A stretch of 64,000 bases of DNA from an uncultured Ruminococcus sp. (GTDB taxonomy: Bacteria > Bacillota > Clostridia > Oscillospirales > Ruminococcaceae): assembly GCA_947566125.1 (NCBI GenBank), contig CANOIR010000003.1, forward strand, positions 3,239-67,238, in the 5' to 3' direction. A program made the translations under genes and the position numbers. Under the pieces are notes generated by a model. That model saw only the letters and a program-made list of their open reading frames with translations. It was not told where the DNA came from and did no database searches. Every line of letters begins with the position of its first letter. The stretch's first letter is position 1. Below, piece by piece: positions 22,612-60,099 of this stretch.

Positions 22612-22658
22612 GGCGTAAGGTTTAACTTAAAAAGTTTGAAACCTTACGCCGATTTTTT
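22612..22658. terminator. Intrinsic terminator between convergent ilvE and small ORF
   Basis: 12-bp stem GGCGTAAGGTTT/AAACCTTACGCC followed by a T-tract. Confidence 0.8.
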
Positions 22659-22929
22659 ATTCCACAGAGTTGATCTGCTTTTCAGAATATTCGGATTGCT
22701 TTGCTGCATTCAATTTTTCAAGGTTATTCACAAGATAATCTGTACTGCGGTATACACTTCTGTTTATTGGAGGCTCATACGTCACTTCAATATTTCCATC
22801 TGAATTTTTTTCCAAAATAAGCTTAAGATTTTTTGGAAGCCTTACTCCCCATCTTTTCTTAGTATAAATTATACATCTTTTTATCTCTTCGTCCGTAAAA
22901 CTGCCGCACTTTATTTCCGTCTGCATCAT
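22657..22929 (-). CDS. Small protein with NrdD C-terminal (glycyl-radical domain)-like tail, Gly replaced by Asp
   Basis: AGAGAGGTG RBS and own terminator. RSTDYLVNNLEKLNAAKQSEYSEK aligns with NrdD RITGYLVGTLDRFNDAKRSEEHDR from this window. Confidence 0.75.
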   Translation of the reverse strand: MMQTEIKCGSFTDEEIKRCIIYTKKRWGVRLPKNLKLILEKNSDGNIEVTYEPPINRSVYRSTDYLVNNLEKLNAAKQSEYSEKQINSVE

Positions 22930-23075
22930 TTATAAAAACACCTCTCTTAATTTTAATAATATAATAACACAACGCTGACCTAAATATATTGACAAACAAT
23001 GAATTTATAAAAAATTTGCGTCTTAAACCAATATCTGCTGCATACCATTTTTTTAAAGAGATGGAGGTGTTTTTT

Positions 23076-56926: not shown

Positions 56927-57007
56927 GCTAAGAAAAATATAAATTTAACCTATGCCTATTGACAAATTCCTTAAAATGGGCTATACTGGATAACAGTGAT
57001 GATTTGC

Positions 57008-57055
57008 ATACAAGATACGCTGTGTGTTTTGCAAGCCACATACAATATTTTGTGT
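57008..57055 (+). promoter_or_regulatory. Tandem NrdR boxes
   Basis: ATACAATATTTTGTGT (57040-57055) matches acaCwAtATaTwGtgt at 14/16. ATACAAGATACGCTGT (57008-57023) matches at 11/16. Starts are 32 bp apart, just upstream of nrdD. Confidence 0.6.
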
Positions 57056-57078
57056 TTCTTGGAAGGAGCTTTATTATT

Positions 57079-59397
57079 ATGATCATACATATTATAAAAC
57101 GTGACGGACGCAAAGTTCCGTTTAATATTGAAAAAATCGCAAACGCTGTATTCCGTGCAGCTCAGTCTGTAGGCGGTACAGATATGAATGAAGCAATGGA
57201 TATTGCTGTTAAAACCTGTGAGCTTTATGAAGAAAATTATGGCAAGGAAATTCCTACCGTTGAGATAATTCAGGACTTGGTTGAAAAGACTCTTATTGAA
57301 AGCGGTCACGCTCAGACTGCAAAGGCATATATTCTCTATCGATATGAGCGTACACGTGATCGTGAAATGAAATCAAACCTCATGAAAACTATGGGTGAGC
57401 TTACATTTGATTCCGCAAAGGACAGCGATATAAAACGTGAAAATGCTAATATTGATGGTGATACCGCAATGGGTACTATGCTCAAGTACGGTTCTTCTGC
57501 TGCTAAGGAATTCTATGAAATGAAAGTTCTGAATCCTGCACACGCAAAGGCTCACCATGACGGGGATATTCATATTCATGATCTGGATTTCTTAACTCTT
57601 ACTACTACTTGCTGCCAGATCGATCTTATAAAGCTGTTTGAAGGCGGATTCTCTACAGGTCACGGCTTTCTGCGTGAACCTAATGATATTGCAAGTTATT
57701 CTGCACTTGCTTGTATTGCTATTCAGTCTAATCAAAATGACCAGCACGGCGGTCAAAGCATTCCAAACTTTGATTATGCAATGGCAGGCGGAGTTAAGAA
57801 AACATATAAAAAGCGTTATCTGCGTAATATGGAACGTGGTCTTACACTTGTTGCTGGAATGGAAAACAGCGGCAAATTCGTAAAAGATTATGCCACAAAA
57901 ATTTTTAATGAAAAGGGCATTATTCCTTGCCTTGCAAATGATAACGGCTTTCAGGAAGCTGAAAAAGAATATCTGCTGACTAAAATAGATGAAACTATGG
58001 CTGATAAACTTCAAAGCTTCACTGCCGAAAATGCTTATCGTGAAACAAATCGTGCAACATATCAGGCAATGGAAGCTCTTATTCACAATCTCAATACAAT
58101 GAACAGCCGTGCAGGTGCACAGACACCATTTAGCTCTATCAATTATGGTACTGATACTTCTCCTGAAGGTAAAATGGTTATTGAAAATATCCTGCTTGCT
58201 GAAGAAGCCGGTCTTGGAAACGGTGAAACACCTATCTTCCCTATCCATATTTTCAAGATAAAAGAAGGCATAAACTATAATGAATCTGACCCGAATTATA
58301 GTCTTTTCAAACTTGCCTGCCGTGTTTCCGCAAAAAGACTTTTCCCAAATTTTGCATTCCTTGATGCACCATTTAATAAGCAGTATTACAAAGAAGGCGA
58401 TTACCGTACAGAGATAGCATATATGGGCTGTCGTACAAGAGTTATAGGCAATGTATATGATACTGATAATGAAATAGTTACAGGAAGAGGAAATCTGAGC
58501 TTTACATCTATCAATCTTCCAAGACTTGCTATAAAGGCTGATCACAATGTTGGTCTGTTCTTTGATATGCTTGATGAAATGATGGATCTTACAATTGATC
58601 AGCTTATGCACCGTTTCCATATCCAGTGTCAGAAAAAGGTTAGAAATTATCCTTTCCTTATGGGTCAGGGTGTTTGGATCGGCTCTGATGCACTTTCAGC
58701 TGATGATACTGTTGAAGAAGTACTAAAGCATGGTACACTTTCTGTTGGATTTATTGGTCTTGCTGAGGCTCTGAAAGCTCTGATCGGTTCACACCATGGA
58801 GAAAGTGAAGAAGCTCGTGAACTGGGTTTGGAAATAATCACAGCAATGCGTGAACGTATGGATCTTGAAGCAAAGAGAACAGGTCTTAACTTCTCACTGC
58901 TTGCAACACCGGCTGAAGGTCTTTCGGGAAGATTTGTACGTATTGATAAAGAAAAGTATGGCGTTATTCCGGGTGTTACAGACCGTGATTATTATACAAA
59001 CTCATTCCATGTGCCAGTATATTACCCTATAAGTGCGGTTGATAAAATACGCATTGAAGCTCCATATCATGCACTTACAAACGGTGGTCATATCAGCTAT
59101 ATAGAAATGGACGGTGACCCACTCCAGAACTTATCTGCATTTGAAAAAGTTGTACGCTATATGAAAGAATGTGGTATTGGTTATGGCTCTATAAATCATC
59201 CTGTTGACAGAGATCCTTGCTGTGGATTTACCGGCATTATCGGCGACACCTGCCCTATGTGCGGACGCACTGAAGAAAATGGTTCATTTGAACGCATACG
59301 CAGAATAACGGGTTATCTTGTAGGTACACTTGACAGATTCAACGATGCTAAACGTTCAGAAGAACACGACAGAGTAAAGCACGGTTTAACAAAGTAA
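57079..59397 (+). CDS. nrdD: Anaerobic (class III) ribonucleoside-triphosphate reductase with ATP cone
   Basis: IIKRDGRKVPFNIEKI ATP cone, IHIHDLD, MGCRT, GRGNLSFTSINLP, YYTNS and RRITGYLVG motifs; ATG 57079. Confidence 0.97.
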   Translation: MIIHIIKRDGRKVPFNIEKIANAVFRAAQSVGGTDMNEAMDIAVKTCELYEENYGKEIPTVEIIQDLVEKTLIESGHAQTAKAYILYRYERTRDREMKSNLMKTMGELTFDSAKDSDIKRENANIDGDTAMGTMLKYGSSAAKEFYEMKVLNPAHAKAHHDGDIHIHDLDFLTLTTTCCQIDLIKLFEGGFSTGHGFLREPNDIASYSALACIAIQSNQNDQHGGQSIPNFDYAMAGGVKKTYKKRYLRNMERGLTLVAGMENSGKFVKDYATKIFNEKGIIPCLANDNGFQEAEKEYLLTKIDETMADKLQSFTAENAYRETNRATYQAMEALIHNLNTMNSRAGAQTPFSSINYGTDTSPEGKMVIENILLAEEAGLGNGETPIFPIHIFKIKEGINYNESDPNYSLFKLACRVSAKRLFPNFAFLDAPFNKQYYKEGDYRTEIAYMGCRTRVIGNVYDTDNEIVTGRGNLSFTSINLPRLAIKADHNVGLFFDMLDEMMDLTIDQLMHRFHIQCQKKVRNYPFLMGQGVWIGSDALSADDTVEEVLKHGTLSVGFIGLAEALKALIGSHHGESEEARELGLEIITAMRERMDLEAKRTGLNFSLLATPAEGLSGRFVRIDKEKYGVIPGVTDRDYYTNSFHVPVYYPISAVDKIRIEAPYHALTNGGHISYIEMDGDPLQNLSAFEKVVRYMKECGIGYGSINHPVDRDPCCGFTGIIGDTCPMCGRTEENGSFERIRRITGYLVGTLDRFNDAKRSEEHDRVKHGLTK

Positions 59398-59586: not shown

Positions 59587-60099
59587 ATGGATATTCGTAT
59601 TGCCGGTACTGTAAACGATTCAATAGTTGATGGAAATGGAATCCGTTTTACTATTTTTACTCAGGGCTGTCCTCATCACTGCAAAGGCTGCCATAATACG
59701 CAAACGCATGACTTCAATTGCGGCACTGTAATTTCAGAAGAAGAACTGTTAAAAAAAATCAAATCTAATCCCCTTCTGGACGGCGTAACATTCAGCGGCG
59801 GTGAACCATTTTGTCAAGCAGCTGCACTTGCAAGTATTGGAAAGAAAATTCACTCCATGGGCAATCTTGATATTGTAACATATACCGGCTATACATTTGA
59901 AGAACTTGTAAACAGCTTTGATAAACATCCTGAATGGAAAGAACTGCTTGAAGAAACAGATATTCTTATTGATGGAAGATTTGAAGAATCACTAAAAAGT
60001 TATGATATAAGATTCCGTGGCAGTACAAATCAACGTTATCTTGATGCCAAAGAAAGCCTTAGGCAAAATGTACCAATAGACGCCAAACTTCCTGAATAA
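59587..60099 (+). CDS. nrdG: Class III RNR activating radical SAM enzyme
   Basis: DSIVDG.GIR, CPHHCKGCHN, GVTFSGGEPF and FRGSTNQR motifs. Confidence 0.96.
   Translation: MDIRIAGTVNDSIVDGNGIRFTIFTQGCPHHCKGCHNTQTHDFNCGTVISEEELLKKIKSNPLLDGVTFSGGEPFCQAAALASIGKKIHSMGNLDIVTYTGYTFEELVNSFDKHPEWKELLEETDILIDGRFEESLKSYDIRFRGSTNQRYLDAKESLRQNVPIDAKLPE

Follow-up and report, generated by a model that had tools for sequence, protein, structure and literature searches.

A stand-alone homologue of the NrdD glycyl-radical tail with aspartate at the radical position in an uncultured Ruminococcus

What is the function of a small protein that ends like the class III ribonucleotide reductase NrdD, but carries aspartate where the reductase carries its radical glycine? 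The question is raised by a 90-aa open reading frame (ORF) in a DNA stretch of 64,000 nt from an uncultured Ruminococcus sp., which is termed the window in the following. An earlier reading of the sequence alone (the sequence-only reading) had described the ORF as a detached mimic of the NrdD tail. The elements of the ORF and of the nrdDG locus in the same window are listed below, with the basis of each assignment in brackets.

22657..22929 (stop codon within), minus strand: coding sequence of the 90-aa Asp-type stand-alone NrdD-tail protein (ORF and close homologues)
22765..22929, minus strand: N-domain, residues 1-55, predicted beta-alpha-beta-beta (common to the Gly-type 90-aa family by hhalign; AF2 model)
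22669..22764, minus strand: NrdD-tail module, residues 56-87, NRSVYRSTDYLVNNLEKLNAAKQSEYSEKQIN (Smith-Waterman, profile search, hhalign)
22738..22740, minus strand: GAT codon of Asp64, the position of the NrdD radical Gly (sequence; Asp invariant in clade members)
22939..22946, minus strand: ribosome-binding site GAGAGGTG, 8 nt upstream of the ORF start (sequence and relatives)
22961..22969, minus strand: putative extended -10 TGTTATTAT of a sigma-A-type promoter (aligned with TGTGATATTAT / TATGATATAAT of relatives)
22612..22650, no strand assigned: terminator hairpin GGCGTAAGGTTT/AAACCTTACGCC between the convergent aminotransferase gene and the ORF (sequence)
57079..59397, plus strand: nrdD, class III ribonucleotide reductase, 772 aa (ATP-cone, barrel, Zn ribbon, intact tail)
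59287..59382, plus strand: NrdD glycyl-radical tail FERIRRITGYLVGTLDRFNDAKRSEEHDRVKH (radical Gly codon GGT at 59311-59313)
59587..60099, plus strand: nrdG, radical-SAM activase of NrdD (window sequence)

The protein starts with MMQTEI. Its gene is surrounded by genes for a class IV aminotransferase, a P-type cation ATPase and the GPR germination protease, the latter two being mentioned by the sequence-only reading as well (a Ca-type ATPase and gpr). The ribosome-binding site and the terminator claimed there are present as well, whereby the hairpin is probably common to the ORF and the aminotransferase gene and thus bidirectional. A simple terminator scan missed it because the 15-nt loop exceeds the limit of the scan. 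A consensus promoter scan gave another, weak site for the ORF at 23011-22983. The distance of ~34 kb to nrdDG was likewise stated correctly. NrdD starts at ATG 57079 and not at the upstream TTG (56959) of the ORF list. The nrdD promoter (TTGACA-17-TATACT, window 56960-57081) is followed by two NrdR-like boxes at ~57010-57025 and ~57040-57055, whereas no NrdR box with up to 3 mismatches was found near the ORF.

Homology of the tail to NrdD

Searches of Pfam and NCBIfam gave nothing relevant for the window ORF, and PF13597 (NRDD, gathering cut-off 26.2 bits) did not match even at E 10. PF01228 (Gly_radical) gave no match either, hence the ORF is not a member of the PFL-type glycyl-radical domain by sequence. 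BLASTP of the ORF against NrdD left the tail alignment unreported and returned an internal match of 9/32 instead, while a full Smith-Waterman alignment recovered the tail. Here VYRSTDYLVNNLEKLNAAKQSEYSEK of the ORF pairs with IRRITGYLVGTLDRFNDAKRSEEHDR of NrdD without gaps, showing 11 identities in 24 positions and a score of 55 over a length of 26. Shuffled versions of the ORF reached this score once in 2000 trials against the whole of NrdD and in none of 20000 against the NrdD tail. The alignment of the last ~30 residues quoted by the sequence-only reading is exact, as are its codons (ACA GAT TAT CTT GTG in the ORF versus ACG GGT TAT CTT GTA in nrdD).

Since a single pairwise match found post hoc is weak evidence, profiles were used. 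The profile of the Asp-bearing family aligned to that of 21 NrdD C-termini with a probability of 96% and an E-value of 3.9e-9 over 38 columns reaching to the C-terminus (hhalign). Against the Gly-bearing 90-aa family the alignment spans the full length of 91 columns (probability 99.7%, E 4e-26), and the Gly-bearing family in turn aligns to the NrdD tail with E 2e-29. In line with the sequence-only reading, none of the N-terminal ~55 aa of the Asp family aligned to NrdD (hhalign). The ten-stranded barrel with the catalytic Cys loop and the Zn ribbon of NrdD are absent from the 90-aa protein, the tail alone being alignable.

Single-sequence and genome-wide searches agree with the profile alignments. 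A six-frame search of the window's genome with the Asp-family profile matched the tail of its own NrdD (E 8e-4 per genome), and the same type of search in dozens of related genomes hit the C-termini of NrdD frames of ~770-870 aa (E 1e-4 to 1e-3 per genome). Gly-bearing members match PF13597 positions 533-562 with 28-36 bits, which is above the cut-off, and Gly-type 90-aa proteins also score on NCBIfam NrdD models. One Asp-bearing member (P0035) matches positions 711-743 of the NrdD model NF005497 with E 7e-4. An hmmsearch of PDB sequences with the Asp-family profile found no NrdD, because the tails of the T4 and T. maritima enzymes are too divergent. Taken together, the last ~32 residues of the ORF are confirmed, on sequence grounds, to be truly homologous to the glycyl-radical tail of NrdD, with Asp at the position of the radical Gly.

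The stand-alone family and its Asp clade

A family of autonomous NrdD-tail proteins, as inferred by the sequence-only reading from the ORF, indeed exists. Its members consist of a small N-domain of ~55 aa, homologous across the family, and a C-terminal NrdD tail. Among 1.84 billion representatives searched, 161 (clusters at 50% identity) have full-length profile matches. In a profile search of 90%-identity clusters all 8000 scored pass E <= 0.001, so that the family comprises at least 8000 such clusters, most of which keep Gly. The tabulation proposed along with that reading gave G in 251 and D in 36 of 287 family sequences with the motif, and no other residue. Nearly all members keep RITGY, and the window ORF with its Asp64 does not. 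The Gly-type proteins share with it the architecture, the N-domain and the C-terminal position of the tail, and both types occur within one bacterial family. The ORF differs from them by having Asp for Gly, by falling below the PF13597 cut-off and by belonging to a single restricted clade. Some members of 87-97 aa are automatically annotated as 'anaerobic ribonucleoside-triphosphate reductase'.

In 201 genomes sampled from the window's bacterial family, the Gly-type 90-aa gene was found in ~30 and the Asp-type gene in 7. Both types are not mutually exclusive, since one genome (G022; loci L004, L057, L058) carries one Asp-type and two Gly-type paralogues of 90 aa in addition to an intact nrdD. 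The Gly-type module also occurs fused to long N-terminal regions in P0084 (535 aa), P0103 (236 aa), P0168 (401 aa) and P0160 (295 aa), and a weak DUF3849 match of P0103 suggests carriage on mobile elements. Full-length Gly-type 90-aa genes are moreover present on MT838827.1 and MT837046.1, two short contigs from human faeces that are labelled 'Bacteriophage sp.' and lack annotation. A tblastn search of 50,697 phage records with the Asp-type ORF gave no match.

According to a 2026 review, formate lyases are the only enzymes with known spare parts, other glycyl radical enzymes being an open question (PMC13450708). This agrees with the statement of the sequence-only reading that no equivalent for class III ribonucleotide reductase has been described. 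Spare parts or decoys for NrdD were not found in the literature. The Gly-type stand-alone NrdD-tail family is undescribed in the literature, and the Asp clade is likewise new.

A single clade with an SH-aLRT support of 99 comprises 15 of the 16 Asp representatives. In a tree built from the N-domain only, the Asp members still cluster; the G/D label requires 3 changes there, and a single origin of Asp is not excluded. The outlier (P0093) has a Gly-type tail with an independent G-to-D exchange, is also devoid of R-3, R+20 and H+23 and looks like a decaying copy. Within the clade, Asp occupies the radical position in 42 of 42 loci checked. Four Asp subgroups can be distinguished, having N-domains of differing divergence and all exhibiting YR(S/A)(T/A)DYLV. 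For the window ORF, 28 close homologues at 63-94% identity were found plus one at 38% (P0031), the N-terminal sequence of which differs while its tail is nearly identical.

Among one genome per GTDB species at least 34 carriers of the Asp type were counted, as the patterns used miss some variants. These are labelled Ruminococcus, Ruminococcaceae or Oscillospiraceae (gut/rumen), except for one contig binned as Alistipes. In other families of the same order the Asp type was found in 0 of 375 genomes. A cultured carrier is Ruminococcus champanellensis DSM 18848, whose protein (WP_015557514.1) is annotated as 'hypothetical protein'; a literature search for the R. champanellensis accessions found nothing.

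Synonymous sites are saturated in the Asp clade, dN being 0.18-0.26 between closer pairs. Where dS was computable, dN/dS (omega) amounts to ~0.08-0.10. The sequence-only reading depended on conservation of the motif among homologues, and the tail is kept throughout the clade with invariant Asp. Only G and D occur at the site, all 42 loci checked have D, the bearers form one clade, omega is ~0.1 and the outlier P0093 stands in contrast to them. On these grounds we consider the Asp to be under selection and not to be a product of decay. We regard the product of the window ORF as a real and probably expressed small protein and, judged by its alignment, as a radical-dead (Gly to Asp) offshoot of the stand-alone family.

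Tail residues, promoters and genomic context

Residues R-3, T-1, Y+1, L+2, V+3, N+10, A+12, K+13 and E+16 are invariant or nearly so in NrdD and in the Gly-type and Asp-type 90-aa proteins. All three also keep an acidic residue at +19, a basic one at +20 and mostly H+23; the window's own Asp protein has N at +23. Fixed in the Asp clade are the loss of F-8 and the exchanges R-6 to S/C, R-4 to Y, I-2 to S and G0 to D, further G+4 to N, R+8 to K, F/W+9 to L, R+14 to Q and R+20 to K. In the window protein, Gly is absent from the whole tail (residues 56-90). The Asp tail module kept the family signature, lost several arginines and gained a carboxylate.

The AF2 model of the Asp protein, based on an alignment of 74 sequences and of moderate quality (mean pLDDT 75), predicts the elements E3-8, H13-27, E36-41 and E47-52. 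The tail is modelled with a short helix at residues 75-83, the counterpart of the short helix following the Gly loop in NrdD. Foldseek searches of PDB and BFVD with this model gave no significant match.

In the cryo-EM structures of P. copri NrdD, the glycyl-radical domain is held to the substrate flap through Tyr+1 and Arg+8, while the tail past the Gly loop 'makes few specific interactions' with the core (PMC11226230). Because this part contacts the NrdD core so little, the invariant helix residues are candidate determinants of the activase and may plausibly serve its recognition. The glycyl-radical domain lies outside the barrel in one monomer per dimer and, with dATP, in all monomers (PMC11226230). 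By analogy, empty NrdD barrels are likely to exist in vivo.

The five Asp-carrying genomes checked, including a complete one (G157), each possess a single intact nrdD, which encodes its own Gly tail and has nrdG beside it. A class I/II reductase (PF02867) was not found in any of the five, and NrdD is therefore the only ribonucleotide reductase found in them. The Asp gene never adjoins nrdDG. In the window's subgroup the order aminotransferase -> <- ORF, ATPase -> is kept in ~10 loci. The P0033-type subgroup (L005, L076, L125-L133) has the gene convergent to spo0A in 12 loci, the two being ~9 bp apart in L005. In a third subgroup the gene resides within a def-ORF-ksgA housekeeping operon. No neighbourhood is common to the whole Asp clade, conservation being restricted to the subgroups.

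The promoters are conserved within subgroups as well. The spo0A-adjacent subgroup shows a promoter near consensus (TTGCAA-17-TGTTATAAT) and the window's subgroup a conserved extended -10. A sporulation-type promoter was not recognised at the Asp genes, a sigma-A-like extended -10 being conserved instead. Both gpr and spo0A are convergent or divergent to the Asp gene and not co-transcribed with it. In the window's subgroup gpr is located 2.7 kb from the ORF, and the occurrence of two sporulation neighbours may be a coincidence. The sequence-only reading had suggested a shut-off of dNTP synthesis specific to sporulation. This part finds no support in view of the conserved sigma-A-type promoter, the housekeeping operons elsewhere and the lack of co-transcription with gpr or spo0A. 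A vegetative promoter combined with a sole reductase would make a constitutive pure inhibitor costly. Hence a throttling or protective role appears more plausible than that of a pure inhibitor or off-switch.

The related genomes also show variation of nrdD itself. In 20 genomes of the same bacterial family (L032-L051) nrdD is naturally split: the ORF for the body stops soon after the Zn ribbon and is devoid of the Gly loop, the tail is provided by a separate ORF of 45-60 aa (e.g. MSAMQKQSVVGKDVPFERIRRITGYLVGTMDKWNDAKKAEERDRVKHL), and nrdG follows. In two further loci, L071 (G055:C98) and L072 (G076:C417), NrdD has 853-873 aa with two tandem, nearly identical glycyl-radical tails in frame; these are likely intermediates between intact and split nrdD. 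Another contig of the window's genome (G000:C46) carries an orphan tail fragment of the T4/E. coli type (..RRTCGYLGTQFWNQGRTQEIAERVLHL*, L097 4141-4240, minus strand) without start codon. A truncated NrdG-like ORF of 119 aa, which matches Fer4_12 positions 1-99 of 137, overlaps with this fragment. Both are probably what is left of a second nrdDG pair, which may have come from a phage.

Possible function of the Asp protein

A glycyl radical is impossible at Asp64. An L-residue at this position cannot yield a captodatively stabilised glycyl radical, as its side chain sits where the activase abstracts the pro-S hydrogen; for the PFL activase, abstraction of the pro-S hydrogen was reportedly found in the work of Frey et al. 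from 1994. The Asp protein is therefore not a spare part. The role of a decoy or inhibitor of NrdG or NrdD, put forward by the sequence-only reading for the Asp version, is plausible. Most likely the Asp tail still docks where NrdD tails dock, because the residues conserved in every NrdD tail are retained. That these residues were kept over a long divergence together with a strictly invariant Asp points to a specific role with the partners of NrdD tails. Both the partner bound and the direction in which the protein would act are inferred.

We tentatively favour, at somewhat less than even chances, that the Asp protein acts as a non-activatable pseudo-substrate in the tail-binding cleft of NrdG. 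The Asp tail would occupy this cleft and could not be activated. As an effect, the share of NrdD bearing the O2-sensitive radical at a given moment would be limited, and/or idle NrdG would be capped. The cell might thereby gain a reserve of non-radical, O2-insensitive NrdD, and capped NrdG might be protected from uncoupled SAM cleavage or cluster damage. NrdG is preferred over the barrel as target since NrdG binds flipped-out tails, while NrdD keeps its own tethered tail. Several points speak against NrdG. The basic RIRR cluster before the loop is lost (R-6, R-4, I-2) along with G+4, which could weaken recognition. The Asp gene is unlinked to nrdDG and has no NrdR box. Moreover, the promoter is of the vegetative type, and a strong constitutive inhibitor of the activation of the sole reductase would be costly. 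As NrdG is catalytic, a decoy would also need to be abundant or tightly binding.

A rather doubtful possibility is that the Asp tail instead enters an NrdD barrel whose own glycyl-radical domain has flipped out, become disordered or been cleaved by O2, leaving it empty. Either the Asp tail would then stabilise or shield active site and flap as a placeholder, or it would lock the monomer in an inactive state. The residues that tie the flap in P. copri NrdD are invariant (Y+1) or conservatively exchanged (R+8 to K) in the Asp clade, and cryo-EM reveals barrels without the domain in one monomer per dimer and in all monomers with dATP (PMC11226230). The naturally split nrdD of related genomes demonstrates that a tail can be supplied in trans, but the Asp clade and split nrdD do not co-occur. 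In addition, NrdD is intact in five of the five Asp genomes checked, and a tethered tail should out-compete a free one. Whether the enzyme would tolerate an Asp carboxylate buried beside the catalytic Cys is also questionable. At the radical Gly position of NrdD only Ala is said to have been crystallised (T4 G580A).

Less probable still, the module could have been neofunctionalised such that the ancestral fold was kept for a partner unrelated to NrdD and NrdG, with rpsT, ksgA, def, gpr and spo0A as hints. This unlikely reading would account for nrdDG never being in the context of the Asp gene and for neighbours that are housekeeping or sporulation genes. The N-domain of the window's subgroup contains a strongly conserved basic motif (YTKKRWGVRLP), and the top Foldseek matches are ribosome hibernation factors, albeit weak and not significant (E > 0.1). 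On the other hand, the contexts vary among the subgroups, and the conserved residues of the tail are exactly those of NrdD tails despite saturated synonymous divergence.

We assign only a slim chance to the Asp itself being a reactive site, at which NrdG or another radical-SAM enzyme would abstract a hydrogen from the side chain (C-beta). Radical-SAM chemistry on the C-beta of Asp has a precedent in RimO. Asp is strictly invariant here, and A or S, which would kill the radical equally, were never seen. The side chain of an L-residue would also point to the site of attack by the 5'-deoxyadenosyl radical, as deduced from the stereochemistry of PFL-AE. However, no dedicated extra enzyme is encoded nearby, and second activase-like genes are either ordinary-looking GRE activases of 250-270 aa or the truncated remnant on G000:C46. 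If true, a new post-translational modification or a protein radical with a function of its own would result, beyond a mere block of the activase.

A non-functional relic, i.e. a decaying copy of a Gly-type gene, is next to inconceivable. The loss of the radical residue would fit it, and the lone G-to-D sequence P0093 does look decayed. Yet omega is ~0.1, an invariant tail is shared by at least 40 species-level genomes and D is kept in four diverged subgroups; the start codon is conserved too, as are the promoter and the ribosome-binding site. The pseudogene reading was rejected as contradicted by the conservation data.

Apart from the Gly-type family, the Asp protein can be compared to systems already known. 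In E. coli GrcA/YfiD, and in phage T4 Y06I, serve as autonomous glycyl-radical 'spare parts' for pyruvate formate-lyase. Like these, it is a small stand-alone C-terminal radical module encoded away from the enzyme gene. In contrast to them it copies the tail of NrdD and not that of PFL, has another N-domain, does not match PF01228 and, with Asp for the radical Gly, cannot be a spare part. With the glycyl-radical domain of NrdD, including the detached tail ORFs of 45-60 aa, it shares R-x-T-[G/D]-Y-L-V ... N-x-A-K-x-x-E ... [RK]-x-x-H, but it has neither Zn ribbon nor barrel, is encoded away from nrdD/nrdG and carries Asp at the radical position. Yeast Rnr4 is a full-size ribonucleotide reductase subunit which lost its radical residue and has a chaperone-like role. 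Both are paralogues of a radical-carrying reductase component, without the radical residue, and kept by selection as partner or regulator. Rnr4 however belongs to another reductase class and fold, the module of the Asp protein being a tail of 30 residues.

Glycyl radical enzymes are central to anaerobic metabolism. The locus reveals a large family of detached tails for class III ribonucleotide reductase, one lineage of which is incapable of carrying the radical and yet under strong selection. With R. champanellensis DSM 18848 (WP_015557514.1) as cultured carrier, the Asp protein is directly testable. Should it prove to act on the activase as a pseudo-substrate or on the reductase as a plug, this would be the first case of a protein that regulates how glycyl radicals are installed. 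The Asp protein would then further offer a natural probe for the encounter complex of NrdD and NrdG, which is still unsolved, and a handle on how strict gut anaerobes shield dNTP synthesis from oxygen pulses.
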